16,645 nucleotides of DNA from Escherichia coli. GTDB lineage: Bacteria > Pseudomonadota > Gammaproteobacteria > Enterobacterales > Enterobacteriaceae. The notes beneath the pieces are model-generated. The model was given only the letters and a program-made list of their open reading frames with translations, searched no databases and was not told the origin of the DNA. This document shows, in pieces, positions 1-16,645 of the stretch (positions are counted from its first letter, which is position 1; each line of letters begins with the position of its first letter). A program made the position numbers and the translations under genes. The stretch lies in the NCBI RefSeq assembly GCF_003334355.1, contig NZ_QOWP01000049.1; one strand, 5' to 3'.

Positions 1-125
1 TGCAGTTGCCATGTTTTACGGCAGTGAGAGCAGAGATAGCGCTGATGTCCGGCAGTGCTTTTGCCGTTACGCACCACCCCGTCAGTAGCTGAACAGGAGG
101 GACAGCTGATAGAAACAGAAGCCAC
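1..125 (-). CDS. insA: IS1 InsA, N-terminal 41 codons (partial, runs off window start)
   Basis: Minus-strand translation from GTG at 125..123 gives [41 protein letters not shown], matching the IS1 InsA N-terminus from memory. Confidence 0.8.
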
Positions 126-180
126 TGGAGCACCTCAAAAACACCATCATACACTAAATCAGTAAGTTGGCAGCATCACC
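1..180 (-). mobile_element. IS1 insertion sequence, partial (terminus at 180, remainder lies beyond window start)
   Basis: Reverse complement of 158-180 is GGTGATGCTGCCAACTTACTGAT, which I recognise as the IS1 terminal inverted repeat, followed by the insA 5' region. Host AT-rich sequence begins at 181. Confidence 0.85.
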
Positions 181-1188
181 CGATTTTCTTATGGGATTAC
201 CGGTGGGAATGTTTTTGTTAGTTGTCTTGTTTTTGTTTTTTTCTATTTCGCAATCTTAATGACAGTGTCAGCAGATATGCCGCTTGTTGACTGTGTTTTG
301 ACTTTGTCACTGTTGGTTTTGCTTATATTTATGGCAGCAAAAGGACTGCGTTATCAGGCCTTGATGACTAGTCTCAAAGGCGTAAGATTTAGTTTTAATT
401 GCTCTTTGAAAGGGTTCTGGTGGGTAACCTTTTTCTTGCCGATTTTAATGGCCATTGGGATGGGGACTGTTTTCTTTATCTCGACAAAGATGCTACATGC
501 CAATAGTTCAAGTAGTGTTATTATATCTGTGGTTCTGATGGCAATAGTTGGTATTGTTTCCATTGGTATTTTTAATGGTACTTTATATAGTCTGGTAATG
601 AGTTTTCTCTGGAGCAATACCAGTTTCGGTATACATCGTTTCAAGGTGAAATTAGATACTACGTATTGTATAAAATATGCCATTCTCGCATTTTTAGCTT
701 TATTACCTTTTCTCGCTGTTGCTGGTTATATTATCTTCGATCAAATATTAAATGCGTATGATAGTTCTGTGTATGCAAATGATGATATTGAGAATTTACA
801 GCAATTTATGGAAATGCAACGTAAAATGATAATCGCGCAGTTAATCTATTATTTTGGGATTGCTGTTAGCACCAGTTATTTAACGGTGTCGTTGCGAAAT
901 CATTTTATGAGCAACCTGTCACTGAATGATGGGCGTATTCGTTTTCGCTCAACTTTAACATACCACGGTATGCTTTATCGCATGTGTGCGTTGGTGGTGA
1001 TATCCGGGATTACGGGCGGTCTGGCTTATCCACTGCTGAAAATATGGATGATTGACTGGCAGGCAAAAAATACGTATTTGCTGGGCGATTTGGATGACCT
1101 TCCTTTAATCAATAAAGAAGAACAACCAGATAAAGGCTTCTTAGCCAGTATTTCACGGGGAATTATGCCTTCTTTACCATTTCTGTAA
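181..1188 (+). pseudogene. 3' portion of a multi-pass inner membrane protein gene (YjgN-like by position), 5' end severed by IS1
   Basis: Frame-1 reading frame is open from the IS1 junction at 181 to TAA at 1186-1188; first ATG is at 259 (309-aa ORF in track). Highly hydrophobic, visibly AT-rich. Convergent with valS, where K-12 carries yjgN (synteny from memory). No start codon or RBS at the junction. Confidence 0.6.
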
Positions 1189-1241: not shown

Positions 1242-4097
1242 TTACAGCGCGGCGATAACAGCCTGCTGTTCAATCAGCTTCGCTTTCGCTTCCGCATAGC
1301 CTTCCAGCTTCTCACGCTCTTTCGCGATGACCGCTTCCGGTGCGCGGGCGACAAAGCCTTCATTCGCCAGCTTGTTCTCGATGCGGCTGATTTCGCCTTC
1401 GATCTTCGCCACTTCTTTCGCCAGACGCGCCAGCTCATCTTCTTTGTTAATGAGGCCAGCCATCGGGATCAGCAGCTCTGCGCCGTCGATAATCTTCGTA
1501 ACGGAAACCGGACCTTTGTCATCGGCAGGCAGCACGGTGATGCTTTCCAGACGCGCCAGGGTTTGCAGGAAGCCACGGTTTTCATTTACGCGACGTTCTG
1601 CATCCGCGCTGCAACCACGCAGCAGCAGCTCCAGCGGTTTGCCCGGCGCGATGTTCATTTCTGCACGGATGTTACGTACCGCAACGATCGCCTGCTTCAG
1701 CCACTCGGTGTCGGCCAGCGCCGCTTCATCAACCTGAGATGCATCATACTGCGGGAACGGTTGCAGCATGATGGTGTCGGCAGTGATACCGCAAAGTACT
1801 TTCACACGCTGCCAGATGGTTTCGGTGATGAACGGAATGATCGGATGCGCGAGGCGCAGCAGACCTTCCAGTACAGTCACCAGCGTATGGCGAGTACCGC
1901 GCAGTTCTGCTTCGGTGCCACCGTTCATTACCGGCTTGGTCAGCTCGAGATACCAGTCACAGAACTGGTTCCAGGTGAACTCATACAGAATGCCTGCGGC
2001 GATATCGAAGCGGAAGCTGTCCAGCGCTTCGCGGTACGCTTTGATGGTCTGGTTGAACTCCGCCAGAATCCAGCGGTCCGCCAGCGACAGCGTCATTTCG
2101 CCGCCGTTGAAGCCGCAATCCTGACCTTCTGTGTTCATCAGCACAAAGCGGCTGGCGTTCCACAGCTTGTTACAGAAGTTACGGTAACCTTCCAGGCGCT
2201 TCATATCCCAGTTGATGTCACGACCGGTAGACGCCAGCGCCGCCAGGGTGAAGCGCAGGGCATCGGTACCGTGCGGCTCAATGCCGTTCGGGAACTGTTT
2301 CTCGGTGCGCTTACGGATTTTGTCCGCCAGCTGCGGCTGCATCATATTGCCGGTACGTTTTTCCAGCAGTTCTGGCAGCGAAATACCGTCAACCATATCC
2401 AGCGGGTCGATAACGTTACCCTTGGATTTGGACATCTTCTGGCCTTCGTCGTCACGAATCAGACCGGTCATGTAAACAGTGTGGAACGGCACCTGCGGTT
2501 TGCCATTTTCATCTTTGATGAAGTGCATGGTCATCATGATCATGCGGGCAATCCAGAAGAAGATGATGTCGAAACCAGATACCATCACGCTGGTTGGGTG
2601 GAACTGACGCAGGGCGTCGGTGTTTTCCGGCCAGCCAAGGGTAGAGAAGGTCCACAGCGCAGAAGAGAACCAGGTGTCGAGAACGTCTTCGTCCTGACGC
2701 AGGGCAACGTCGGCACCGAGGTTATTTTCCTTGCGCACTTCTTCTTCGTTGCGGCCAACATAAACATTACCCGCTTCGTCATACCATGCCGGGATACGGT
2801 GACCCCACCACAGCTGACGAGAGATACACCAGTCCTGAATATCGCGCATCCAGGAGAAATACATGTTTTCGTACTGCTTCGGTACGAACTGAATGTCGCC
2901 GTTCTCAACCGCTTCAACCGCCGGTTTCGCCAGTACATCGGCACGCACGTACCACTGGTCGGTCAGCATTGGTTCGATAACTACGCCGCCACGGTCGCCG
3001 TAAGGAACGGTCAGGTCGTGCGGTTTAATTTCTTCCAGCAGGCCGAGTGCGTCAACCGCAGCAACGACTGCTTTACGTGCGGCAAAACGCTCCAGTTTCT
3101 GGAATTCTGCCGGGATCTCGCTGGAATAAACGTCAGATTCGTTACCTTTGGTATCGAACACCTGGGCGCTTTCACGGATATCGCCGTCAAAGGTCAGGAT
3201 GTTGATCATCGGCAGGGCGTGACGTTTACCGACTTCATAGTCGTTAAAGTCGTGCGCCGGGGTGATCTTCACGCAGCCGGTGCCTTTTTCCATGTCGGCG
3301 TGTTCGTCGCCAACGATCGGAATACGACGGTTAACCAGCGGTAGAATGACATATTTGCCAATCAGGTCTTTGTAACGCGGATCTTCCGGGTTAACGGCTA
3401 CACCGGTATCGCCCAGCAGGGTTTCCGGACGGGTAGTCGCAACCACCAGGTAATCTTTACCGTCTGCGGTTTTCGCACCGTCAGCCAGCGGATAGCGGAT
3501 GTGCCACATCGAACCTTTCGATTCGCGGTTTTCCACTTCCAGGTCAGAGATAGCGGTGCGCAGTTTCGGGTCCCAGTTTACCAGGCGTTTGCCACGGTAA
3601 ATCAGGTCTTCTTTATACAGACGAACGAAAACTTCTTTCACCGCATTGGACAGGCCTTCGTCCATCGTGAAGCGTTCACGCTCCCAGTCCACGGAGTTGC
3701 CGAGACGGCGCATCTGACGGGTAATGGTGCCGCCGGATTCCGCTTTCCATTCCCAAATTTTGTCGATGAAAGCTTCGCGGCCGTAGTCGTGACGGGTTTT
3801 ACCTTCTTCTGCGGCAATCTTGCGCTCAACGACCATCTGGGTAGCGATCCCGGCGTGGTCAGTACCGACCTGCCACAGGGTGTTTTTGCCCTGCATGCGC
3901 TGATAGCGGATCATGGTATCCATGATGGTTTGCTGGAAGGCGTGACCCATATGCAAACTGCCGGTGACGTTCGGCGGCGGGATCATGATGCAGAAACTTT
4001 CCTGGCTTTCATCGCCATTAGGCTTAAAGTAGCCCTGCTTTTCCCAGTGCTCGTAAAGCGGCTGTTCGATATCTTGTGGGTTATATGTCTTTTCCAT
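1242..4097 (-). CDS. valS: Valine--tRNA ligase (valyl-tRNA synthetase), 951 aa
   Basis: Full-length ORF with class I aaRS HMGH and KMSKS motifs; N-terminus [24 protein letters not shown] matches E. coli ValS from memory. Confidence 0.97.
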
Positions 4098-4540
4098 TAT
4101 TTCCAGGTTGCCGTATTCAGGTTGAAACCAGCCACGCGGTAGGCTTTATAGCGTTCGCGCGCCAGTTGTTTCAGAGAATCTTCATAAGGAACGAAGTCTA
4201 CCACTTCTGTGAAAGCGGTGGCAAAATCTGCAAAGCTTGTTCGCAGACTAATCAATATATCGCGCGGGCTGCTGCTGCGTTTTTGCGGCCAGGCGATCTC
4301 CACCGGCGCACCGCCGCGCGGTCCTTCTCCCGCTAAATTATGCGGAACAAAGCTTTCTGCCGGACGCGCCCACAGGGCTTCATCCAGCCGGTAAGCCTGC
4401 TTTTCATCTTCACAGGCGATGAGCACGCGCTTACCGCTGCGCCAACGTTCTGCGGCAATTTCACACACCAGTTGCTCAACGGCGCTTAAGCCATCGACGG
4501 TGGTGTCATTGTCCAGAAGGTAGAACGTCGCGTTTTTCAT
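4097..4540 (-). CDS. holC: DNA polymerase III chi subunit, 147 aa
   Basis: 147-aa ORF immediately upstream of valS; its stop overlaps the valS ATG by 1 nt (TAATG). Sequence and position match E. coli HolC from memory. Confidence 0.92.
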
Positions 4541-4570
4541 AAATGGGGCTTCTTGTGGTGGATTTAAATA

Positions 4571-4894
<324 letters not shown>

Positions 4895-4895
4895 A

Positions 4896-6673
<1,778 letters not shown>

Positions 6674-7774
6674 GTGATAATCATAAGATATCTGGTGCGG
6701 GAGACGCTCAAAAGCCAGCTGGCGATACTCTTCATCTTGCTTTTGATCTTCTTCTGTCAAAAGTTAGTGAGGATCCTCGGCGCAGCGGTTGACGGCGATA
6801 TTCCGGCGAATCTGGTGCTCTCCCTTCTCGGGTTGGGCGTGCCGGAAATGGCGCAGCTTATCCTGCCATTAAGCCTGTTCCTCGGGCTGCTGATGACGCT
6901 GGGCAAACTGTATACCGAAAGTGAAATTACGGTAATGCATGCCTGCGGCCTGAGCAAAGCGGTTCTGGTGAAAGCGGCAATGATCCTTGCGGTATTCACG
7001 GCAATCGTCGCGGCGGTTAACGTGATGTGGGCGGGACCGTGGTCATCGCGTCATCAGGATGAAGTGTTAGCAGAAGCGAAAGCGAACCCTGGCATGGCGG
7101 CGCTGGCGCAAGGGCAATTCCAGCAAGCGACTAATGGCAGCTCGGTGCTGTTCATCGAAAGCGTTGACGGCAGCGATTTCAAAGATGTGTTCCTCGCACA
7201 AATTCGACCAAAAGGTAATGCACGTCCTTCTGTGGTGGTGGCCGATTCCGGACATTTAACCCAGCTGCGCGACGGCTCCCAGGTCGTCACTCTCAACCAG
7301 GGAACGCGCTTCGAAGGCACTGCACTGTTACGTGATTTCCGCATTACGGATTTCCAGGATTATCAGGCGATCATTGGTCACCAGGCGGTGGCGCTCGACC
7401 CGAACGATACCGACCAGATGGACATGCGCACATTGTGGAACACTGACACCGATCGTGCTCGCGCAGAACTGAACTGGCGTATCACGTTGGTATTCACCGT
7501 GTTTATGATGGCACTTATGGTCGTACCGCTGAGCGTGGTTAACCCACGTCAGGGACGCGTACTGTCGATGCTGCCAGCCATGCTGCTGTATCTACTTTTC
7601 TTCCTGATCCAGACCTCCCTGAAATCGAACGGCGGTAAAGGTAAGCTGGACCCGACGCTGTGGATGTGGACCGTTAACCTGATTTATCTGGCTTTGGCGA
7701 TTGTTCTCAACCTTTGGGACACCGTGCCGGTCCGCCGCCTGCGCGCCAGTTTTTCGCGTAAAGGAGCGGTGTGA
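6674..7774 (+). CDS. lptF: LPS export ABC transporter permease LptF, 366 aa (GTG start)
   Basis: Begins MIIIRYLVRETLKSQ from GTG at 6674; multi-TM protein; matches E. coli LptF (YjgP) from memory. Confidence 0.93.
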   Translation: MIIIRYLVRETLKSQLAILFILLLIFFCQKLVRILGAAVDGDIPANLVLSLLGLGVPEMAQLILPLSLFLGLLMTLGKLYTESEITVMHACGLSKAVLVKAAMILAVFTAIVAAVNVMWAGPWSSRHQDEVLAEAKANPGMAALAQGQFQQATNGSSVLFIESVDGSDFKDVFLAQIRPKGNARPSVVVADSGHLTQLRDGSQVVTLNQGTRFEGTALLRDFRITDFQDYQAIIGHQAVALDPNDTDQMDMRTLWNTDTDRARAELNWRITLVFTVFMMALMVVPLSVVNPRQGRVLSMLPAMLLYLLFFLIQTSLKSNGGKGKLDPTLWMWTVNLIYLALAIVLNLWDTVPVRRLRASFSRKGAV

Positions 7775-8856
7775 TGCAACCTTTTGGCGTACTTGACCGC
7801 TATATCGGTAAAACTATTTTCACCACCATCATGATGACGCTGTTCATGCTGGTGTCGCTGTCAGGCATTATCAAATTTGTCGATCAGTTGAAAAAAGCCG
7901 GGCAGGGGAGTTACGACGCGTTAGGCGCAGGAATGTATACCTTGCTGAGCGTGCCGAAAGATGTGCAAATATTCTTCCCGATGGCGGCTTTGCTTGGGGC
8001 GTTGCTTGGTCTTGGGATGCTGGCGCAGCGCAGCGAACTGGTGGTGATGCAGGCTTCTGGTTTCACCCGTATGCAGGTTGCGCTGTCGGTGATGAAAACC
8101 GCCATTCCGCTGGTCTTACTGACGATGGCGATTGGTGAATGGGTCGCGCCGCAGGGCGAGCAGATGGCGCGTAACTACCGTGCGCAGGCGATGTACGGCG
8201 GCTCGTTGCTCTCTACCCAGCAAGGCTTATGGGCGAAAGATGGCAACAACTTCGTCTACATTGAGCGGGTTAAAGGTGACGAAGAGTTAGGTGGCATCAG
8301 TATCTATGCCTTTAACGAGAATCGTCGTCTGCAATCCGTACGCTATGCCGCTACCGCGAAGTTTGACCCGGAACATAAAGTCTGGCGTCTGTCGCAGGTT
8401 GATGAATCTGATCTGACCAATCCGAAACAGATTACCGGTTCGCAGACGGTGAGCGGCACCTGGAAAACCAACCTCACGCCTGACAAACTGGGCGTGGTGG
8501 CGCTGGATCCGGATGCACTCTCTATCAGCGGTTTGCACAACTATGTGAAGTATCTGAAATCGAGCGGTCAGGATGCCGGACGTTATCAGCTCAACATGTG
8601 GAGCAAAATCTTCCAGCCGCTATCCGTGGCGGTGATGATGCTGATGGCGCTGTCGTTCATCTTTGGCCCACTGCGTAGCGTACCGATGGGTGTGCGTGTG
8701 GTCACCGGTATCAGCTTCGGTTTTGTCTTCTATGTACTGGACCAGATCTTCGGCCCGCTGACGTTGGTTTATGGCATCCCGCCGATCATCGGCGCACTGT
8801 TGCCAAGCGCCAGCTTCTTCTTAATCAGCCTGTGGCTGTTAATGAGAAAATCGTAA
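7774..8856 (+). CDS. lptG: LPS export ABC transporter permease LptG, 360 aa
   Basis: ATG at 7774 overlaps the lptF stop by 1 nt (TGATG); AAGGAG RBS at 7761-7766. The track ORF starts 3 nt earlier at GTG 7771; the ATG gives the expected 360 aa. Confidence 0.92.
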
Positions 8857-10518
8857 CCGAATGAACGAATAAAGGGAGCGAAAGCTCCCTTTATTATTGT
8901 TAGCAAAGTGTGCTTCGTTCATTCCTGAAAAATAATTAAAATCCAATATATTGCAGTGGTGTAGGCATGATAAGACGCGCCAGCGTCGCATCAGGCAAAG
9001 ACAAATCGCGCCTGACTTACCTTCTTCTTCCCCCAGCAAACTCCCCAACATCCCGCGTACAATCTGATTCGTCACCTGGCGGGCGGCGCTTTTCGCCATT
9101 GTTTGCACCACACCATCTTTCTTCCCGCCGCGTGGTCCGGTAGTGCCAAACAAAATATCCTTCAATCCACCAAGAATGCCGTCATCCACCGCCACCTCTT
9201 TCCCTTTCACGGCAGGATTATTTTGCTGCTCGGCGCTTGCCTGTACGCCTTTTTGCAACATCTCATAGGCGGATTCCCGGTCCACGTCATCCTCGTACTT
9301 GCCATACACCGGAGAGTGATTAATCAAGCCATTACGCTCATCTTCCGTCACCGGTCCCATCCGCGAACAAGGCGCAATCACCATCGCCCGTTCCACCACA
9401 GAAGGGCTTCCTTTCGCATCCAGAAAAGAGATCAACGCCTCGCCGGTGCCCAGTTCCTGAATCGCCTTTTCGGTATCAAATGCCGGATTGACCCGCATGG
9501 TTTGCGCCGCAGCTTTTACCGCTTTCTGATCTTTGGGCGTAAAAGTCCGCAAAGCGTGTTGAACGCGATTACCGAGCTGGCCGAGCACGTTATCCGGAAT
9601 ATCGGACGGATTTTGCGAAACGAACCAGACGCCCACGCCTTTTGAGCGAATAAGCCTTATCACCTGCTCAATCTTATCCAGCAGTACCTGCGGTGCATCG
9701 TTAAACAGCAGATGTGCCTCGTCGAAGAAAAACACCAGTTTTGGTTTCTCCAGATCGCCCGCTTCCGGCAATTGTTCATACAACTCCGAGAGCATCCACA
9801 ACAGGCTGGCGGCATACAGTTTCGGCATCTGATAAAGCTTCTCGGCGCTGAGGATATTGATAACGCCTTTACCGTTGGCATCGGTGCGCATCCAGTCTTT
9901 GATATCCAGCATCGGCTCACCAAAGAAGTGTGCTGCGCCTTGCTGTTCCAGCGACAACAGCCCGCGCTGGATGGCACCAACCGATGCGCTACTGATATTT
10001 CCGTACTGATTCTGGAAAGATTTGGCGTTATCGCCGATGTACTGGGTAATCGCCCGCAAATCTTTAAAGTCGAGCAGTAACAGCCCCTGATCGTCAGCAA
10101 TGCGGAAGATGATATTCAGCACGCCAGACTGCACATCGTTGAGATTCAACAGCCGCGCCAGCAACAGCGGCCCCAGATCCGAAACCGTCGCCCGCACCGG
10201 ATGGCCTTTCTCGCCAAAGATATCCCACACCACCACCGGATTGGCATGCGGTTGCCAGTCATTGACGCCGATATTTTTAAGCCTTGTGAGCAGTTTTTCC
10301 GACGCCGTTCCTGCCTGCGCGATACCGGTCAGATCGCCTTTCACATCAGCCATAAACACCGGCACGCCGATTTCCGACAATGACTCTGCCAGTTTTTGCA
10401 GCGTAACGGTTTTACCCGTCCCCGTTGCGCCAGTAATCAGCCCGTGACGGTTAGCCATTCCCGGCAGTAAAAACAGTTCTGTGTCCGGCGTGCGGGCAAT
10501 TAACAGGGGTTCGCTCAT
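8839..10518 (-). CDS. yjgR: YjgR-type P-loop ATPase; ORF in this sequence is 559 codons, about 59 longer than expected
   Basis: ATG at 10518 with GGAGG RBS; Walker A GATGTGKT near the N-terminus. The ORF continues through the REP element and the lptG terminator hairpin and overlaps lptG by 18 nt; the last ~59 codons are probably read-through. Confidence 0.85.
8871..8895. terminator. Intrinsic terminator hairpin downstream of lptG
   Basis: AAAGGGAGC-GAAA-GCTCCCTTT stem-loop at 8871-8892 followed by T-rich ATTATTGTT, 15 nt after the lptG stop. Confidence 0.55.
8961..8996. repeat. REP element
   Basis: GTAGGCATGATAAGACGCGCCAGCGTCGCATCAGGC is the reverse complement of the same REP consensus seen in the 4571-4894 array. 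Confidence 0.65.
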
Positions 10519-10617
10519 GAGATTTCCTCCAGTTTCCTGCCTGGAGTATAGGCAACGGCTGTGCACTCTTCACCGCTAAATTCAGCAGATTGCGAGACGC
10601 CTTCCAAAGAGATTTAA

Positions 10618-10644
10618 GTGCCGGGCGACAGGCACCCGGCAAAG
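10618..10644 (-). terminator. Candidate ahr terminator hairpin
   Basis: Inverted repeat TGCCGGG...CCCGGCA just downstream of the ahr stop on the minus strand, followed by a modest U-rich tract. Confidence 0.3.
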
Positions 10645-10647
10645 GGA

Positions 10648-11667
10648 TCAGAAGTCGGCTTTCAGGACCACGCGGTAGCGCGCTTTACCATCGCGTACAT
10701 GCTGGATGGCGTCGTTAATTTTCGACATCGGGAACAGTTCGGTGGTCGGCGCAACCTTGCTGCGGGCGGCAAAACGCATCAGCTTACGCAGCTCATAAGG
10801 CGTGCCGGTAGCAGAACCAGAGATGCTGCGGTCGCCCGCAATTAACGTAAAGGCCGGAACAGACAGCGGCGTGAGAACCGCACCGACCGTATGGAAATTA
10901 CCGCCATAGGTCAGCGCCTCAAAATAAGGCTGCCAGTCGAGGCTGACGTTCACAGTATTGATAATGAGATCAAACTGCCCCGACAGGGCTTTCAGTGCCT
11001 GCGGATCGCGGCTATTCACCACTTTATCGGCACCCATCGCCAGTACTTCCTGCTCTTTCGCCGGATTAGAACTAAAGGCCGTCACCTCGCATCCCATTGC
11101 GTGCAGAAGTTTTATAGCGATATGCCCCAGCCCGCCAATACCAATTACCCCAACGCGGCTGGTAGCAGTGATATGGTGCATCAACAGTGGTTTAAAGACC
11201 GTGATACCGCCGCACAACAGCGGCCCGGCGGACTCGATATCAATATTTTCTGGCAGTGGAATCACCCATTGCCAGTCCGCACGCAACTTCTCGGCAAAGC
11301 CACCGCGATTCATAATCGTCGGCACCGCACCTTGCTCGCAGTTGATCTGATTACCGCTAATACAGGCGTCGCAGTGACCACAGCTACGCGCCGTCCAGCC
11401 AATCCCGACACGCTGACCGACCTGCAAACCTTTATCCTGCGCGGCGCTCCCGAGTGCCACCACGCGCCCAATCACCTCATGCCCGGCAACCAGCGGATAT
11501 TGTGAAAATCCCCATTCGTTATCGATCATCGACAGATCGGAATGACAAATCCCGCAGTAATCCACCTGCACTTCAACATCTTGTGGCTTCAGCTCACCGG
11601 GATCGTACTCATAAACTTCCAGTTCGCCGCCCGCTTCTTTTGCGGCATAGCTTTTTATCATCGACAT
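10648..11667 (-). CDS. ahr: NADPH-dependent aldehyde reductase Ahr (YjgB), Zn-dependent alcohol dehydrogenase family, 339 aa
   Basis: ATG at 11667 ([14 protein letters not shown]) with GAAGGA RBS; zinc-ligand region GHEVIGRV and Rossmann [10 protein letters not shown] motif. The track ORF is 14 codons longer from an upstream ATG without RBS. Confidence 0.9.
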
Positions 11668-11805
11668 TTTTGGGTCCTTCTCTGGTGTTGTTTGGGAAGT
11701 GTAGAGCATGGCAGGGCGGGGTGCCTGGAGTGTGACAAAGGTTACATATCGCTGAGTGTAATGCTGAAAATTTCAGCACTTAGCGAGGTGGGTGCAAGCT
11801 GGCGC

Positions 11806-11862: not shown

Positions 11863-11947
11863 GCCGAAGTGGCGAAATCGGTAGACGCAGTTGATTCAAA
11901 ATCAACCGTAGAAATACGTGCCGGTTCGAGTCCGGCCTTCGGCACCA
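11863..11947 (+). tRNA. leuX: tRNA-Leu (anticodon CAA), 85 nt, type II tRNA with long variable arm, encoded CCA
   Basis: Acceptor stem GCCGAAG/CTTCGGC, anticodon loop TTCAAAA, T-loop GGTTCGAGTCC, 3' ACCA. Confidence 0.95.
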
Positions 11948-12133: not shown

Positions 12134-13399
12134 ATGGCATTAACAGATATCAAAGTCAGAACAGCCAAGCCAACAGATAAGCAATATAAGCTGACTGATG
12201 GTGGCGGTATGCATCTGCTTGTCCATCCAAATGGTTCTAAGTACTGGCGTTTGCAGTACCGTTATGAGGGAAAGCAAAAGATGTTGGCACTTGGGGTTTA
12301 TCCTGAAATCACACTAGCGGATGCCAGAGTACGCCGTGACGAGGCGCGTAAGCTGCTTGCGAATGGAGTCGATCCGGGAGACAAAAAGAAAAATGATAAG
12401 GTTGAACAGAGTAAAGCACGAACCTTTAAAGAAGTCGCGATCGAGTGGCATAGCACCAATAAAAAGTGGTCTGAAGATCACGCCCATCGTGTGCTAAAAA
12501 GTCTGGAAGATAATCTTTTTGCAGCGCTTGGTGAACGTAATATCGCTGAGTTAAAAACTCGAGATTTATTAGCACCCATTAAGGCCGTGGAGATCTCTGG
12601 ACGTCTTGAAGTGGCAGCTCGTCTTCAACAGCGCACTACAGCCATCATGCGCTATGCAGTACAAAGTGGGTTAATTGATTATAACCCGGCACAAGAGATG
12701 GCTGGGGCGGTTGCTTCCTGTAATCGACAACATCGTCCGGCGCTTGAATTAAAGCGCATCCCTGAGTTGCTTACAAAAATAGATAGCTATACTGGTAGGC
12801 CGCTAACCCGATGGGCGACAGAACTCACTTTGCTGATCTTTATTCGGTCCAGTGAGCTGCGTTTTGCTCGCTGGTCAGAGATCGATTTCGAAGCGTCTAT
12901 ATGGACTATCCCACCGGAGCGGGAGCCTATTCCTGGAGTGAAGCATTCCCATAGAGGCTCAAAAATGCGTACAACGCATCTAGTGCCTCTTTCAACGCAA
13001 GCCCTTGCAATTTTAAAGCAGATAAAACAGTTTTGTGGGTCTCATGACTTGATATTTATTGGTGATCACGATTCGCACAAGCCTATGAGTGAAAATACGG
13101 TAAATAGTGCGTTACGGGTCATGGGGTATGATACAAAAGTTGAGGTTTGTGGTCATGGCTTCCGCACAATGGCCTGTAGTTCATTGATCGAATCAGGTTT
13201 GTGGTCTCGTGATGCTGTTGAACGTCAGATGAGCCACATGGAGCGAAATTCAGTGAGGGCCGCGTATATCCATAAAGCAGAACATCTGGAAGAACGGCGA
13301 TTGATGTTGCAATGGTGGGCCGATTTTCTTGATGCGAACCGGGAGAAGGGTATCAGTCCGTTTGAATACGCAAATGTTAACAATCCGCTGAGAAGGTGA
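12134..13399 (+). CDS. P4-type tyrosine recombinase / integrase, 421 aa, apparently intact
   Basis: Full-length ORF immediately 3' of a tRNA gene; GGAGGG RBS 7 nt before the ATG; sequence resembles P4-family integrases from memory; visibly lower GC than the core genes. Confidence 0.9.
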   Translation: MALTDIKVRTAKPTDKQYKLTDGGGMHLLVHPNGSKYWRLQYRYEGKQKMLALGVYPEITLADARVRRDEARKLLANGVDPGDKKKNDKVEQSKARTFKEVAIEWHSTNKKWSEDHAHRVLKSLEDNLFAALGERNIAELKTRDLLAPIKAVEISGRLEVAARLQQRTTAIMRYAVQSGLIDYNPAQEMAGAVASCNRQHRPALELKRIPELLTKIDSYTGRPLTRWATELTLLIFIRSSELRFARWSEIDFEASIWTIPPEREPIPGVKHSHRGSKMRTTHLVPLSTQALAILKQIKQFCGSHDLIFIGDHDSHKPMSENTVNSALRVMGYDTKVEVCGHGFRTMACSSLIESGLWSRDAVERQMSHMERNSVRAAYIHKAEHLEERRLMLQWWADFLDANREKGISPFEYANVNNPLRR

Positions 13400-13618: not shown

Positions 13619-13951
13619 ATGATTGACATAGTTTCCCAAACGGAAAAATCACTTCCCTTCTTGGAAGAAAATCTGCGAGCACATATAAAATGGAAACAGC
13701 ACGGCGGCCCTTGTGAAATCCCCAATGGCCTGGCGTTTTGCGCAATTCACCATAAAGTCTTTGATAAAGGATCGATTGGTCTGGATGAAAATATGCGGGT
13801 ACTGGTCTCGGATGTGGTAAACGGCGGAGGGATCGTTGAGAGATTATTCTGGGATTTTGACGGGAAAACTATTGCGTTGCCACAGGTGCGTAAAAATTAC
13901 CCTTTTGAGGGGGTTGTGGAGTGGCATCGGAAAGAGGTTTTTAGGGGGTGA
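13619..13951 (+). CDS. Small ORF (110 aa) carrying only an HNH-type nuclease core; probably a 5'-truncated remnant
   Basis: Motif HGG...PNGLAFCAIHHKVFDKG resembles the C-terminal HNH core (NGLxLCxxHHxxFDxG) of larger HNH endonucleases. An in-frame TAG sits immediately before the ATG and the RBS is weak. Confidence 0.4.
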   Translation: MIDIVSQTEKSLPFLEENLRAHIKWKQHGGPCEIPNGLAFCAIHHKVFDKGSIGLDENMRVLVSDVVNGGGIVERLFWDFDGKTIALPQVRKNYPFEGVVEWHRKEVFRG

Positions 13952-14061: not shown

Positions 14062-15060
14062 TTACTGTTCAGCTTTTTCAACAACAAAACCATTTTGCCG
14101 TACAAACTCAATCAAGAGTTCAATATTAACAATGCCCCATTGATTAGAAATAGCAACAATTTCACCAGAAGGAAGTGTAATCAACGCATCTTCATTAATA
14201 TGATAGCGACTCTTTTGCTTCTCTGGTATCTGATCGACAAGCATAACCGTCCGTTTTTTAAAGTCTTCACTTAACCCATTTATTAAATCATTATAACTTG
14301 CAGGATTAAATTGATTTATCCAATCGCGTAATAATTCAAGCGCTAATTTACGCTTATTAAGTTCTTTATCTTTATATATATACCACGTATAGTCCTTCTC
14401 TTTTTTCTGACTGCTAATTAGCTGCTCATCACGTTTTTCACGAAATTTAACTTGATATTCTTCCAATTCAGGAACCGGTATGATTTGCTCTGCATTGATC
14501 AGAACATCATCATTAAATCTATAAGGCGTCAGACGAACACATCGAATGTCTACCCCCTTATCTCTTAACCAAATCGCAGTGGTAGTCAGTTCCTTGCTAA
14601 AATCCGATGAAGCCAAAACAATTCTGATATCTTTTCCGAAATCAACAAGCTCAGTTTCATCCAGCTCAACAAATTCAAGTATTTTTTCTTTCGCATCGGC
14701 ATCGCAGTTTTGTTTTTTCAAATACGTCTGGAAATATTCACATGCTTTCGCAAAACTCATTGTGGAAATCATCGCTGCATATCGTAGTGCCTGTAACTCC
14801 ATATGCGCACCAGTTTCATCACGTTTTAATTCGATAACCACTAAATTTGCCTGTTTATCGATTGCCAATAAATCAATTCGCCGACGGCTATCTTCCCAGT
14901 CAGAAAACTCTTCGGAAATCACCAGACAATCAGGAGCAATAATATCTATGTTTTTTTTGATTGCTTCCTGTAAATCATAACGTTCCTGTAATCCTTCCAG
15001 AGTAAAGGTCGTTTTTTCTAAAGCATGTAGTTCTTTATTTGCGATATTGTACAGCGCCAC
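14062..15060 (-). CDS. Uncharacterised protein with N-terminal RecB-like PD-(D/E)xK nuclease motif, 332 aa (GTG start)
   Basis: Uninterrupted 332-codon ORF with AGGAAG RBS; very AT-rich. Residues 61-94 RIDLLAIDKQANLVVIELKRDETGAHMELQALRY give D-x(n)-ExK plus QxxxY. The C-terminal ~200 aa has no motif I recognise. Confidence 0.75.
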   Translation of the reverse strand: MALYNIANKELHALEKTTFTLEGLQERYDLQEAIKKNIDIIAPDCLVISEEFSDWEDSRRRIDLLAIDKQANLVVIELKRDETGAHMELQALRYAAMISTMSFAKACEYFQTYLKKQNCDADAKEKILEFVELDETELVDFGKDIRIVLASSDFSKELTTTAIWLRDKGVDIRCVRLTPYRFNDDVLINAEQIIPVPELEEYQVKFREKRDEQLISSQKKEKDYTWYIYKDKELNKRKLALELLRDWINQFNPASYNDLINGLSEDFKKRTVMLVDQIPEKQKSRYHINEDALITLPSGEIVAISNQWGIVNIELLIEFVRQNGFVVEKAEQ

Positions 15061-15353
15061 GTTTATCTTCCTTTTTTAACTGATTTTACAGGGACTTTAA
15101 CACAGTAAAAATTTTATTTCCTGAGCTGTAATCGATTAAGCTGATGCACTAAATGGGAATCATATAGGGTCATTTCCAGTCTCACTTATAGAAATGGCTA
15201 AAGCATGACTCTCGCCAAAACCGTGTATGTGTTGTACATAACGCGATCATCCCTCTCACAAATTGCCTTTTCTCATGGCATCTCGCCCGGTCCCCCATTA
15301 CAATCACTTTTTGTTTTTTGCGAGCTGCATTCCAGTCTTCAGAGGGTTTTTCG

Positions 15354-15959
15354 ATGATTAAAAATGACAAGGCATGGGTAGGAGACTTGCTGGGCGGGCC
15401 GCTCATGAGCAGGGAAAGCCGCGTCATTGCCGAACTGTTGCTAACCGATCCCGATGAACAGACATGGCAAGAGCAAATTGTTGGCCACAACATTTTACAA
15501 GCCTCTTCTCCTAACACCGCAAAACGTTACGCGGCAACAATCAGGCTTCGCCTGAACACGCTTGATAAAAGCGCGTGGACATTGATTGCCGAAGGTAGTG
15601 AGCGGGAACGCCAACAACTTCTGTTTGTGGCTCTGACGCTACATTCGCCGGTAGTTAAGGATTTTCTGGCTGAAGTGGTGAACGATCTGCGCAGGCAGTT
15701 CAAGGAAAAGTTGCCTGGCAATAGTTGGAACGAATTTGTTAATAGCCAGGTTCGCCAACATCCGGTACTCGCCAGCTACTCAGATTCATCTATTGCAAAA
15801 ATGGGAAACAATCTGGTGAAGGCGCTTGCTGAAGCGGGTTATGTGGATACGCCCCGCAGACGTAACCTGCAGGCAGTTTACCTTTTACCGGAAACTCAGG
15901 CAGTGTTACAGCGCCTGGGGCAACAGGACTTGATATCTATTCTGGAGGGAAAACGGTGA
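15354..15959 (+). CDS. brxA: BrxA-like protein (DUF1819-type), 201 aa; first gene of a BREX-like cluster
   Basis: ATG at 15354 with AGAGGG RBS; ~200-aa, largely helical-looking protein whose stop overlaps the next start (GTGA). Assignment is from size, coupling and gene order, not from a recognised motif. Confidence 0.55.
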   Translation: MIKNDKAWVGDLLGGPLMSRESRVIAELLLTDPDEQTWQEQIVGHNILQASSPNTAKRYAATIRLRLNTLDKSAWTLIAEGSERERQQLLFVALTLHSPVVKDFLAEVVNDLRRQFKEKLPGNSWNEFVNSQVRQHPVLASYSDSSIAKMGNNLVKALAEAGYVDTPRRRNLQAVYLLPETQAVLQRLGQQDLISILEGKR

Positions 15960-16558
15960 TAGATCCCGTTCTTGAATATCGCCTGTCTCAAATCCAGAGT
16001 CGCATTAACGAAGATCGCTTCCTCAAAAATAACGGCTCCGGAAATGAAATTGGTTTTTGGATCTTTGATTATCCCGCGCAGTGCGAACTGCAGGTACGGG
16101 AGCATTTGAAGTATCTGCTCCGGCATCTGGAAAAGGACCATAAATTTGCCTGTCTGAATGTCTTCCAAATCATCATCGATATGCTCAATGAACGCGGCCT
16201 TTTCGAGCGCGTCTGCCAGCAGGAAGTCAAAGTGGGTACTGAGACGCTGAAAAAGCAGCTTGCTGGTCCGTTAAATCAGAAAAAAATCGCTGATTTTATA
16301 GCGAAAAAAGTCGATCTGGCTGCCCAGGATTTTGTCATCCTTACCGGCATGGGCAACGCCTGGCCATTAGTACGCGGTCATGAACTGATGAGTGCCTTGC
16401 AGGATGTCATGGGGTTCACCCCACTGCTGATGTTTTATCCTGGCACCTACAGCGGGTACAACCTTTCCCCGCTCACAGACACCGGTTCACAAAATTATTA
16501 TCGCGCTTTCAGACTGGTACCAGATACGGGACCCGCAGCAACATTGAATCCTCAATGA
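15956..16558 (+). CDS. brxB: BrxB-like protein (DUF1788-type), 200 aa
   Basis: GTG start at 15956 with GGAGGG RBS, overlapping the upstream stop by 4 nt; ~200 aa; followed by a third co-directional gene. Assignment by architecture. Confidence 0.55.
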   Translation: MIDPVLEYRLSQIQSRINEDRFLKNNGSGNEIGFWIFDYPAQCELQVREHLKYLLRHLEKDHKFACLNVFQIIIDMLNERGLFERVCQQEVKVGTETLKKQLAGPLNQKKIADFIAKKVDLAAQDFVILTGMGNAWPLVRGHELMSALQDVMGFTPLLMFYPGTYSGYNLSPLTDTGSQNYYRAFRLVPDTGPAATLNPQ

Positions 16559-16621
16559 AGAGCATAATGAACCGCCCCGGAAATCCTGGAGACTAAACTC
16601 CCTGAGAAAGAGGTAAACAGG

Positions 16622-16645
16622 ATGACTAAAAATACTCGTTTTTCC
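16622..16645 (+). CDS. 5' end of the third gene of the cluster (MTKNTRFS...), runs off the window; would be brxC (large ATPase) if the BREX assignment holds
   Basis: ATG at 16622 preceded by AAAGAGG RBS, 63 nt after the brxB-like stop; only 8 codons visible. Confidence 0.35.

Follow-up and report, generated by a model that had tools for sequence, protein, structure and literature searches.

An IS1-truncated yjgN remnant and a leuX-island defence candidate as AT-rich patches beside a GC-typical Escherichia coli core segment

The chromosomal segment of Escherichia coli considered here raises the question of why two of its genes differ so strongly in base composition from the core genes that lie between them. 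The window, by which we mean the whole 16,645-nucleotide stretch of DNA that was analysed, is a contig with IS copies at both of its bounds. A core block of seven genes (valS, holC, pepA, lptF, lptG, yjgR and ahr; positions 1242 to 11709) provides the GC-typical contrast at 54.1% GC, and its individual genes have GC values of 0.525-0.552 and GC3 values of 0.55-0.67. The stretch at positions 181 to 1188 has a GC of 0.375, a GC3 of 0.369, a GC3s of 0.326 and a codon adaptation index (CAI) of 0.271, and the corresponding values for the gene at 14062 to 15060 (minus strand) are 0.362, 0.297, 0.279 and 0.327. An earlier note on this DNA had described this contrast and the A/T-ending codons of both genes, and had read them as signs of horizontal origin and possible H-NS silencing. 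AT-rich, low-CAI genes beside a GC-typical core are the textbook mark of xenogeneic DNA in E. coli.

The contrast is real and statistically extreme. As a background we used 141 ORFs of at least 150 amino acids, taken from four 50-kb segments of the E. coli K-12 chromosome that were chosen arbitrarily, with a CAI reference set of 29 genes (ribosomal-protein genes, tufA and fusA). These ORFs have a GC of 0.520 +/- 0.033, a GC3s of 0.538 +/- 0.063 and a CAI of 0.432 +/- 0.105. Against them, the stretch at 181-1188 has z-scores of -4.4 for GC and -3.4 for GC3s and falls at the 1.4th percentile of CAI. The gene at 14062-15060 has a GC value below that of all 141 ORFs (z = -4.75) and a GC3s z-score of -4.1; its CAI lies only at the 12.8th percentile of the 141 ORFs. 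In a sliding-window comparison, a GC content of 37.5% or less is reached by only 0.77% of the 1008-nt windows of a 200-kb K-12 background. The observation is confirmed, and the interpretation placed on it earlier is partly supported. We consider it likely that both patches are xenogeneic DNA within a GC-typical E. coli core segment, one of them a remnant of the gene yjgN and the other a defence candidate in a leuX island.

There is a simple competing explanation for the first patch, which encodes part of a membrane protein. Perhaps its AT-richness reflects the amino acid composition of a hydrophobic protein (Phe, Ile, Leu, Asn, Lys and Tyr) rather than its history. The coding strand of yjgN is indeed T-rich, with an AT skew down to -0.34, and both GC1 (0.40) and GC2 (0.35) are low. 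Re-encoding the protein with the codon preferences found in the seven core genes gives an expected GC content of 49.2%, which is still about 5 points under the core. However, the observed 37.5% lies another 12 points under this expectation, and GC3s is 0.33 compared with 0.54 +/- 0.06 in the background. Furthermore, 54-55% GC and GC3 values of 0.65-0.67 are found for lptF and lptG, two genes of this window that encode polytopic membrane proteins. Thus, the GC deficit is not simply a membrane-protein effect, and this explanation, which is contradicted by the synonymous-site data, is very unlikely. The protein encoded at 14062-15060 gives a similar result on re-encoding with the same seven genes (47.6% GC expected, 36.2% observed), and amino acid composition alone explains neither of the AT-rich patches.

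The beginning of the window falls within an insertion sequence. Positions 1-180 (minus strand) are the first 180 nucleotides of an IS1A-type IS1, comprising its inverted-repeat end and the 5' part of insA, as indicated by megablast and by the annotation of strain E47. These nucleotides are 99-100% identical to IS1A ends and finish with the terminal bases GGCAGCATCACC at 169-180; IS1 copies were matched by megablast in all genomes searched. An identical contiguous junction is present in E47, where it is annotated as 'IS1-like element IS1A family transposase'. The IS1 end is followed at 181-189 (plus strand) by CGATTTTCT, the right-hand copy of a 9-bp target-site duplication, which corresponds to yjgN nucleotides 190-198. 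This right-hand copy alone lies inside the window, and the left-hand copy is known from E47 and D72, wherein nucleotides 1-198 of yjgN are located to the left of IS1, nucleotides 190-1197 to the right, and CGATTTTCT on both sides.

Positions 181-1188 (plus strand) contain the 3' 1008 nucleotides of a class I (K-12-type) yjgN, a gene for a DUF898 inner-membrane protein. They correspond to codons 64-398 plus the stop codon, with the IS1 cut at codon 63/64. The fragment carries no internal stop, is 97.6% identical to nucleotides 190-1197 of K-12 yjgN, and coincides exactly with a pseudogene called by PGAP in E47 ('DUF898 family protein, missing N-terminus'). A complete yjgN coding sequence is not present, and its 5' 189 nucleotides are outside the window. 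There are only two genomes among 5426 of E. coli that carry this exact IS1::yjgN junction. In K-12, yjgN (b4257) is intact, encodes 398 amino acids, and occupies the same position beside valS with the same 37% GC; here its first 189 nucleotides, its promoter and the yjgM/yjgN spacer have been split off by IS1.

These features show that an IS1 inserted into yjgN at codon 63/64 and left the stretch at 181-1188 behind. The insertion cut this stretch off from the promoter and start codon and from the part that encodes the first transmembrane helix, and because these are lost the fragment is most likely non-functional. What the earlier note took to be a membrane-protein gene is instead a 5'-truncated remnant made by IS1 insertion, and in annotation it is better called an IS1-disrupted yjgN pseudogene.

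Since 181-1188 is no more than a pseudogene in the present strain, one might ask whether its low GC content arose by decay after the IS1 insertion. The intact K-12 allele is equally AT-rich, with 37.1% GC, and the fragment differs from it by only 2.4%, with an omega of 0.19 and no internal stop. These values indicate that the composition predates the insertion, which is recent by comparison. Since intact alleles have the same GC content, decay was rejected as the cause of the low GC and has almost no likelihood.

Another possibility is that the fragment is still expressed, either by read-out from IS1 or by relief from H-NS as in bgl, to give a truncated 309-amino acid protein from the ATG at position 259. 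An intact ORF of this length does extend from 259 to 1188, and IS insertions are described in a passage of PMC11335895 as activating H-NS-silenced operons such as bgl. However, this ATG corresponds to an internal residue of YjgN (about residue 90), and a product starting there would be without the first transmembrane helix predicted for the protein (residues 25-43) and without the greater part of the N-terminal repeat in the YjgN structure model. In addition, a scan for promoter-like sequences gave no outward site at the yjgN-facing end of IS1, and PGAP treats 181-1188 as a pseudogene. Thus, expression of a shortened YjgN seems improbable.

What YjgN does is not apparent from its relatives. 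The intact K-12 protein matches Pfam DUF898 (PF05987) over residues 13-369 with an E-value of 9.7e-45. Its predicted structure (pLDDT 86.6, pTM 0.81) depicts repeated units, in each of which a beta-hairpin precedes a transmembrane helical hairpin. A PDB sequence search with YjgN gave no match, and a Foldseek search with the model gave no significant one (best E-value 0.045, TM-score 0.30). Likewise, the NCBIfam and PADLOC profiles returned nothing for YjgN, and no functional account was found in a literature search on DUF898. No function is known for this family, and it lacks a relative of solved structure.

The suggestion of H-NS silencing can be examined with data for the homologous K-12 locus, where an association is documented for the spacer, for yjgM and for the 3' end of valS. 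The yjgM/yjgN spacer is a Genomic-SELEX H-NS site (PMC3946193, HNS mark in Table 1). In S2 Table of PMC4720273, yjgM is listed as H-NS-bound (TRUE), and valS is TRUE through a region restricted to its 3' end only. The published K-12 H-NS tables examined have no entry for yjgN itself, the supplements of PMC11335895 make no mention of it, and a full-text search for b4257 gave irrelevant matches only. Occupancy of the yjgN gene body in K-12 may be surmised from both flanks and the spacer. In the present strain, IS1 stands between the yjgN fragment on one side and its promoter and the spacer with the published H-NS site on the other.

There is no enrichment of H-NS motifs or promoters in the DNA analysed here. 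Matches to the high-affinity motif TCGATAAATT with up to two mismatches number 23 in the window, compared with 17.5 expected, and they are not concentrated in the AT-rich genes. Similarly, a scan of the window for sigma-70 promoter-like sites gave 19, compared with 17.7 expected, and there is no intragenic excess. The yjgN fragment resembles H-NS-bound xenogeneic genes such as bgl, yjgL and yccE in having a GC content 15-17 points below the genome average and a low CAI, and also in its foreign-origin phylogeny and in the published H-NS sites at the homologous K-12 locus. Unlike H-NS-bound island genes, yjgN replaces an ortholog in an ancestral slot, and promoter-like sites and the H-NS motif are not enriched. 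The published occupancy of the homologous AT-rich tract by H-NS would be in keeping with a tract that is transcriptionally damped and favoured as an insertion target.

There are several further examples of IS1 in yjgN. In NCTC9040 an independent IS1 is accompanied by a duplication of nucleotides 975-983, D72 carries a second IS1 together with a deletion, and AR_0374 and STN0717-20 represent further independent events. An IS1 in yjgN has also been reported for the K-12 derivative LS5218 (PMC5699524). IS1-disrupted alleles are rare in spread genome samples (1/60 and 1/25). H-NS-directed targeting is known for IS5-family elements, and for IS1 in plasmid assays. According to a passage of PMC3000339 that cites Shiga 2001, H-NS promotes the insertion of IS1 into AT-rich DNA, and published work makes both the transposition of IS1 and its targeting dependent on H-NS. 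With other AT-rich, H-NS-associated targets of IS1, yjgN shares the IS1 end, the classical 9-bp duplication and the occurrence of several independent insertions, here within a gene of 1.2 kb. Unlike at typical AT-rich targets, however, the AT content within 25 nucleotides on either side of five yjgN sites is just 54-66%, which is not extreme. An AT-rich tract associated with H-NS would plausibly account for the repeated insertions. As disrupted alleles are so few, yjgN is no more than a putative IS1 hotspot, proposed from a handful of independent events.

The position of yjgN is far more stable than its sequence. The arrangement yjgM-yjgN-valS is shared by E. coli and the nine other Enterobacteriaceae taxa that were sampled, and in every genus sampled the yjgN ortholog lies 6.5-17.5 GC points under valS. 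Phytobacter has two tandem DUF898 genes in place of one. Within E. coli, yjgN was found in 5426 of 5426 genomes, and in none of them do yjgM and valS lie 1.1 kb or less apart. Class I alleles, with 95-100% identity, are carried by 4630 of these genomes (85%). The other 796 genomes carry a divergent class that exhibits only about 70% nucleotide identity over 10-31% of the gene. The YjgN proteins of class I and class II are 41.6% identical, whereas the same comparison for valS gives 97.1% identity in nucleotides and 99.8% in amino acids. Although the genes themselves are unalignable, the spacer 3' of yjgN is identical at 35 of 35 positions between the two classes. A GC-rich hairpin at 1197-1222, located between yjgN and valS and resembling a bidirectional terminator with T-runs on both strands, forms the conserved right-hand edge of this variable segment.

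The gene tree departs from those of the neighbouring genes. In a neighbour-joining tree of YjgN, class I groups with Superficieibacter and then with C. sedlakii, and class II groups with E. albertii and then with Salmonella, each with 100% bootstrap support; monophyly of E. coli receives 0%. At the same loci, Escherichia is monophyletic with 100% support in the ValS tree and 99% in the YjgM tree. These results, together with the atypical composition, favour the horizontal origin that had been proposed for the membrane-protein gene, not as the insertion of a new gene but as the replacement of an ortholog in a conserved slot. The sequence comparisons suggest that class I yjgN is a xenologous replacement of the resident allele. 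The idea that it is an older acquisition also fits, as class I is found in 85% of genomes and the dS between the fragment and K-12 is 0.067, similar to that of flanking genes.

In our reading, the yjgM-yjgN-valS slot is ancestral in the Enterobacteriaceae and always holds a fast-evolving DUF898 gene of below-average GC content. A class I xenolog, foreign to the Escherichia lineage, would then have replaced the resident class II allele, itself AT-rich, by recombination in the conserved flanks, and it would have done so early enough to reach its present frequency of 85%. Both classes are under purifying selection, with omega values of 0.13-0.19, and dS reaches 0.37 within class II.

An alternative reading is that yjgN is a resident gene inherited vertically. 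Its low GC content and fast divergence would then have arisen in situ, through weak expression, H-NS, weak codon selection and AT-biased mutation, and the two classes would be an ancient polymorphism or differentially lost paralogs. This fits the presence of the slot in all ten taxa with a gene whose GC content is below that of valS each time, and the failure to find a donor or a plasmid or phage vector. The adjoining yjgM is also unusually diverse within E. coli (dS 0.13-0.74, compared with 0.14 for valS; 0.232 in PMC4720273), and the thesis of PMC4720273, as stated there, is that H-NS-bound genes diversify faster. Because Phytobacter retains two tandem DUF898 paralogs, an unrecognized paralogy followed by differential loss could look like transfer.

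However, class I YjgN shows 66% amino acid identity to the Superficieibacter protein and only 42% to the other E. coli allele; its grouping with Superficieibacter has 100% bootstrap support, and the flanking genes recover the monophyly of Escherichia. Class II, by contrast, shows the gradient that vertical descent would produce, the identity of its homologs falling from 90-97% within E. coli to 85-86% in E. albertii and to 64-66% in Salmonella. There is no tandem of class I and class II among the E. coli loci examined, and the double-match genomes that were checked proved to have IS-split genes. Moreover, extremely long balancing selection would be needed to keep both lineages in one species since before the split of Citrobacter and Superficieibacter. 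We regard a purely vertical history as rather unlikely and prefer replacement by a xenolog. Nevertheless, part of the AT-richness of yjgN may have arisen in situ rather than by transfer, since its orthologs lie under the GC content of valS in every genus.

No donor of the class I allele was found; the nearest homologs outside Escherichia are 62-66% identical and have 47-50% GC. The extreme 37% GC of class I is explained by no sampled source. The contig scan for yjgN relatives used peptide patterns that reach close relatives only. Its single match, a 301-bp contig from a Caballeronia assembly that is 99% identical to E. coli yjgN, is probably contamination. A plasmid vector was considered and rejected, as most of the plasmid matches proved to be chromosomes under a wrong label or replicons of very large size.

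It is tempting to view the yjgM-valS slot as a hypervariable cassette site for DUF898 genes, maintained by diversifying or balancing selection from an antagonist, such as a phage, a colicin or a contact-dependent toxin, that uses or targets the membrane protein. We offer this only tentatively and consider it doubtful. The observations that prompt it are two classes that are 42% identical, one of them probably imported, purifying selection on both, abnormally deep dS (0.37 within class II and 0.74 in the adjacent yjgM) and repeated knock-outs by IS1. Neutral turnover of silenced DNA is an alternative to selection on the slot.

The second AT-rich patch has a different setting. A tRNA-Leu(CAA) gene, leuX, was located with ARAGORN at 11863-11947 (plus strand) and is the integration site of an island. 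It is followed at 12134-13399 (plus strand) by the tyrosine integrase of the island, which has 46.6% GC and is annotated in the 99.7%-identical locus of strain HS30-1. Next is an N-terminally truncated HNH endonuclease pseudogene at about 13679-13951 (plus strand). It matches NCBIfam NF045808 (E-value 2.3e-37) over profile positions 196-284 of 284, is the C-terminal remnant of a phosphorothioated-DNA-binding restriction endonuclease, and is named by PGAP 'HNH endonuclease, missing N-terminus'. Beyond the AT-rich gene, the BREX type 1 genes brxA and brxB (50.2% and 48.2% GC) occupy 15318-16558 (plus strand), as assigned from annotated loci of 99.5-99.7% identity. The window ends, short of the far side of the island, inside the left end of an IS3-family element of the IS1203/IS629-like type at 16568-16645 (plus strand), and positions 16556-16645 match the ends of an 'IS3-like element IS1203 family transposase' in 3548 genomes. 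The match to the island stops at 16567, where brxC starts in related genomes.

These genes have the characteristics of a tRNA-associated island, namely a tRNA gene, an adjacent integrase and a sporadic distribution among strains. Of 5426 complete E. coli genomes, only 29 contain 80% or more of the island segment. The GC content of the island is about 10 points below that of the core, and the gene at 14062-15060 is its most AT-rich part. The adjoining tRNA-Leu(CAA) and integrase and the rarity of the segment bear out the island origin that had been claimed for this gene. The layout of tRNA-Leu(CAA), integrase, brxA and brxB, with a GC content below that of the core, is the same as in the leuX BREX-1 islands of the E. 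coli HS type. Unlike the HS-type BREX locus, there is an IS1203-family element at the expected start of brxC, and the AT-rich gene that separates the integrase from brxA does not belong to the BREX system.

The AT-rich island gene (14062-15060, minus strand) encodes a protein of 332 amino acids that is annotated as a CDS in HS30-1 and is called a 'hypothetical protein' by PGAP (WP_001240354.1). It is a candidate defence protein of the PADLOC class PDC-S11, matching the profile PDLC04909 with an E-value of 5.8e-114 over residues 1-323 and profile positions 1-338 of 347. This match is full-length, although the class itself is a computational candidate. The similarity to NucS-DUF91-like PD-(D/E)XK nucleases is weak, with scores far under the family cutoffs. 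NCBIfam NucS gives an E-value of 3.8e-7 and 29.4 bits (curated cutoff 216), the Cas4 profile 16.9 bits (cutoff 65), Pfam NucS_C an E-value of 0.0027, and a NucS entry in the PDB an E-value of 0.085. The weak signal for a NucS C-terminal nuclease domain or Cas4-like PD-(D/E)XK region lies near the N-terminus, at residues 16-134, and suggests a possible nuclease activity.

The nuclease motif earlier ascribed to 14062-15060 would correspond to no more than this weak signal, and the HNH endonuclease named by PGAP is the neighbouring pseudogene. An apt annotation for the gene would be PDC-S11 candidate, with mention of its weak PD-(D/E)XK-like signal, rather than HNH gene. Homologs are scattered among Enterobacterales, Vibrio, Photobacterium, Shewanella and Aeromonas, and a literature search on PDC-S11 gave mentions in surveys only, with no functional study found. 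This protein may provide a single-gene, nuclease-like candidate defence within an integrase-bearing leuX island beside the BREX-1 operon.

AT-rich patches beside core genes are an ordinary, well-understood xenogeneic pattern, and published K-12 datasets already link H-NS to the yjgM-yjgN-valS junction. The finding as first stated is of little consequence, and its practical value is for annotation. The dimorphism of yjgN alleles is a modest extra, a mildly interesting by-product. It illustrates that an 'orthologous' slot can mask the replacement of an allele by a xenolog, which pangenome pipelines then score as gene gain or loss; yjgN is listed as 'gained' in an ST131 preprint. More broadly, DUF898 may be a family under conflict-type selection.

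There are two AT-rich tracts in the window, a yjgN fragment (181-1188) and an island gene (14062-15060), and both belong to a familiar type of xenogeneic DNA. Sequence comparison identifies the first as what is left, after truncation by IS1, of a probably imported yjgN allele in an ancestral slot, and the second as a defence candidate with nuclease-like features in the leuX/BREX island. The AT-rich contrast described in the earlier note is confirmed, and its interpretation was largely right, although imprecise.

The window comes from the E. coli chromosome; in it, an IS1 end, the yjgN fragment, valS, holC, pepA, lptF, lptG, yjgR, ahr and the tRNA-Leu(CAA) gene leuX are followed by an integrase gene, a truncated HNH pseudogene, a minus-strand gene for 332 amino acids, brxA, brxB and the end of an IS3-family element. 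Positions 1-180 hold the initial 180 nucleotides of a reverse-oriented IS1A-type element, and positions 16568-16645 belong to the IS3-family (IS1203/IS629-like) element. Because both ends lie within insertion sequences, it is most likely a contig from short-read assembly that breaks off at repeats on either side. The idnR-idnT-idnO-idnD-idnK operon, located between yjgR and ahr in K-12, is missing at 10566-10648. It is likewise missing from E. coli strains E47 and D72, and idnK is still kept beside ahr in strain HS30-1, which carries the same BREX island. The holC-pepA spacer (4541-4895) is 355 nucleotides long versus 159 in K-12 because it holds three tandem REP/BIME-type palindromic units (gcctgatgcgacgct...cttatcaggcctac).

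The composition contrast with core genes such as valS, pepA, lptFG and yjgR is real. GC content is 0.375 for the yjgN fragment (GC3 0.369, GC3s 0.326) and 0.362 for the island gene (GC3 0.297, GC3s 0.279), versus 0.525-0.552 for seven core genes (GC3 0.55-0.67), among which lptF and lptG encode membrane proteins and yet are GC-typical. Relative to 141 ORFs from four arbitrary 50-kb stretches of K-12 (GC 0.520 +/- 0.033, GC3s 0.538 +/- 0.063, CAI 0.432 +/- 0.105), the z-scores for GC and GC3s are -4.4 and -3.4 for the fragment and -4.75 and -4.1 for the island gene. Only 0.77% of 1008-nucleotide windows in this 200-kb background are equally AT-rich. With 29 K-12 ribosomal-protein, tufA and fusA genes as the reference set, the CAI of the fragment is 0.271 (1.4th percentile), and that of the island gene is less extreme (0.327, 12.8th percentile). 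About a third of the GC deficit is due to amino acid composition; re-encoding with core-gene codon usage gives 49.2% GC for the fragment and 47.6% for the island gene.

The tract at 181-1188 is not the intact membrane-protein gene it had been taken for. It is 97.6% identical to nucleotides 190-1197 of K-12 yjgN (b4257; 1197 nucleotides, 398 amino acids, Pfam DUF898 at E 1e-44), and at precisely these coordinates the PGAP annotation has a 'DUF898 family protein, missing N-terminus'. The same junction occurs in E47 and D72, where the far side of IS1 carries yjgN nucleotides 1-198, and comparison with these strains reveals a classical 9-bp target duplication, CGATTTTCT. The insertion falls at codon 63/64 and cuts off the promoter, start codon and first hydrophobic helix, and a 309-amino-acid ORF from the ATG at 259 begins near internal YjgN residue 90. 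There are no internal stop codons and omega versus K-12 is 0.19, so the IS1 insertion is recent and the AT-richness is older than the insertion. This exact junction is found in only two of 5426 complete genomes.

Several other IS1 events have struck yjgN independently. These include an insertion in NCTC9040 and relatives, with duplication of nucleotides 975-983, another in STN0717-20, and those published for the K-12 derivatives LS5218 and NCM3722 (PMC5699524). D72 carries two IS1 copies in yjgN with loss of nucleotides 547-1168 (locus L004, 18071-19139). In AR_0374, an IS1B accompanies loss of nucleotides 1-923 (L016, 6289-7274), and a further IS1B lies about 4 kb away beside a chloramphenicol acetyltransferase gene. 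Disrupted yjgN is nevertheless rare, with one case in each of two spread samples (1/60 and 1/25).

The slot occupied by yjgN is ancestral. The order yjgM-yjgN-valS-holC-pepA is kept in Superficieibacter, Citrobacter sedlakii, Phytobacter, Scandinavium, E. albertii, Salmonella enterica, S. bongori and Atlantibacter, and in each of these taxa yjgN lies 6.5-17.5 GC points below valS. YjgN is also much the faster-diverging protein: its amino acid identity to K-12 is 37-66%, versus 94-96% for ValS. All 5426 complete E. coli genomes carry yjgN, and in none are yjgM and valS less than 1.1 kb apart. There are two allele classes. Class I, the type of K-12 and of the window, is present in 4630 genomes at 95-100% nucleotide identity. 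Class II (395 amino acids, about 42% GC) is present in the other 796 (15%), and was seen only with sensitive blastn, at about 70% identity across 10-31% of the gene. The two proteins are 41.6% identical, whereas valS of the same two strains is 97.1% identical in nucleotides and 99.8% in amino acids. The yjgM/yjgN spacer cannot be aligned between classes and the valS-side terminator is conserved. Omega values of 0.13-0.19 indicate purifying selection in both classes.

Class II identities follow a species-tree pattern (90-97% within E. coli, 85-86% to E. albertii, 64-66% to Salmonella), and class II is most simply taken as the lineage allele of E. coli. Neighbour-joining trees (300 bootstraps) speak against vertical descent of class I. 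Class I groups with Superficieibacter (100%) and then C. sedlakii (100%), class II groups with E. albertii (100%) and then Salmonella (100%), and E. coli monophyly receives 0%, versus 100% and 99% for Escherichia monophyly in the ValS and YjgM trees built from those loci. Hidden paralogy, rather than allele replacement, is a possible alternative that draws on a tandem DUF898 pair, 37% identical, in the yjgM-valS slot of Phytobacter/Metakosakonia massiliensis (L013, 6001-7194 and 7380-8582). This pair indicates that the slot can house paralogous cassettes; its second copy clusters with the gene of Atlantibacter (100% bootstrap). Under allele replacement, class I would be a xenolog that displaced class II through recombination in the flanks. 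This event would be old, as class I has reached 85% frequency and accrued species-typical diversity (dS 0.067 between the window and K-12). Thus the proposed older acquisition appears to hold for the allele but not for the slot, where a resident class II allele was probably replaced. A search for the donor found none; the nearest relatives, in Superficieibacter, are 62-66% identical, and class I (37% GC) is far more AT-rich than its nearest relatives (47-50%).

Synonymous divergence of class II yjgN and neighbouring yjgM within E. coli is unusually deep. Three class II alleles, from S22EC, N50 and R32_14_1F (L017, 4965-6152; L018 and L019, 2459-3646), show mutual dS of 0.29-0.37, and yjgM reaches 0.74 between strains versus 0.14 for valS. 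A 301-bp contig assigned to 'Caballeronia mineralivorans PML1(12)' (NZ_AEJF01000364.1) encodes E. coli YjgN residues 4-102 at 99% identity and is almost certainly E. coli contamination of that draft assembly.

The K-12 YjgN structure is confidently modelled by AlphaFold from 36 homologs (pLDDT 86.6, pTM 0.81). The model (m4c9f697a1abb) predicts about five repeats of a unit in which a short beta-hairpin leads into a transmembrane helical hairpin. No solved structure in the PDB matches significantly by sequence or fold (best fold match E 0.045, TM 0.30), NCBIfam and PADLOC searches gave no hits, and no function for DUF898 was found in the literature.

The island gene (14062-15060, minus strand) encodes a 332-amino-acid 'hypothetical protein' (WP_001240354.1) that is matched along its whole length by PDC-S11, a candidate phage-defence family of PADLOC (E 5.8e-114). 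Its N-terminal region has only sub-threshold similarity to NucS/DUF91 and Cas4 PD-(D/E)XK nucleases. The PGAP label 'HNH endonuclease' does not apply to it, but to the neighbouring plus-strand pseudogene (about 13679-13951). This N-terminally truncated pseudogene, between the integrase gene and the island gene, covers positions 196-284 of the 284-position NF045808 profile. It is what remains of a phosphorothioated-DNA-binding restriction endonuclease, a decayed earlier defence gene of the same island. Homologs of the island gene are numerous and patchy, with 91% identity in E. albertii, 76% in Citrobacter, about 70% in Pantoea, Morganella and Hafnia and 63-66% in Vibrio and Photobacterium; others are found in Shewanella and Aeromonas. 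From leuX to the IS1203-family end the island has 43.8% GC (45.8% without the island gene) versus 54.1% for the core block, and at least 80% of the segment is present in only 29 of 5426 genomes. The horizontal origin proposed for this gene is therefore secure. The IS1203-family end directly follows the brxB stop codon (16558), at the brxC start position of related genomes, so the BREX operon may be interrupted in this strain.

The possibility of H-NS silencing had also been raised, and published data support H-NS binding at the homologous locus of K-12, whose yjgN is of the same class. Shimada et al. (2014) place an RpoD-holoenzyme site and a Genomic-SELEX H-NS site in the divergent yjgM/yjgN spacer (PMC3946193). 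S2 Table of Higashi et al. (2016) gives yjgM as H-NS-bound, and in it the binding of valS is confined to the 3' end of the gene, the end that adjoins yjgN; yjgN is absent from their orthologous-gene list, which fits the allele dimorphism (PMC4720273). A non-specific gSELEX peak lies within the yjgN ORF (PMC8249747). In the window, neither H-NS motifs (23 matches, 17.5 expected) nor promoter-like sites (19, 17.7 expected) are enriched, and IS1 stands between the fragment and the spacer with the published H-NS site. Capture of insertion sequences by H-NS-covered AT-rich DNA is established for IS5-family elements (PMC11335895), and H-NS is reported to promote both the transposition of IS1 and the insertion of IS1E into AT-rich repeats (PMC3000339, citing Shiga 2001). 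By extension, such targeting might also account for IS1 in yjgN.

The composition contrast is ordinary, and established knowledge already explains both tracts. No description of a yjgN allele dimorphism with xenologous replacement was found in literature mentioning yjgN, and this deep dimorphism, with its probable replacement, is the one thing that would exceed textbook knowledge. A pangenome study of ST131 counts yjgN, bdcAR, yjgH and chpBS as 'gained' in clade C (bioRxiv 10.64898/2025.12.08.692488). Given the dimorphism, the yjgN 'gain' may be an allele replacement that clustering thresholds counted as a gain.
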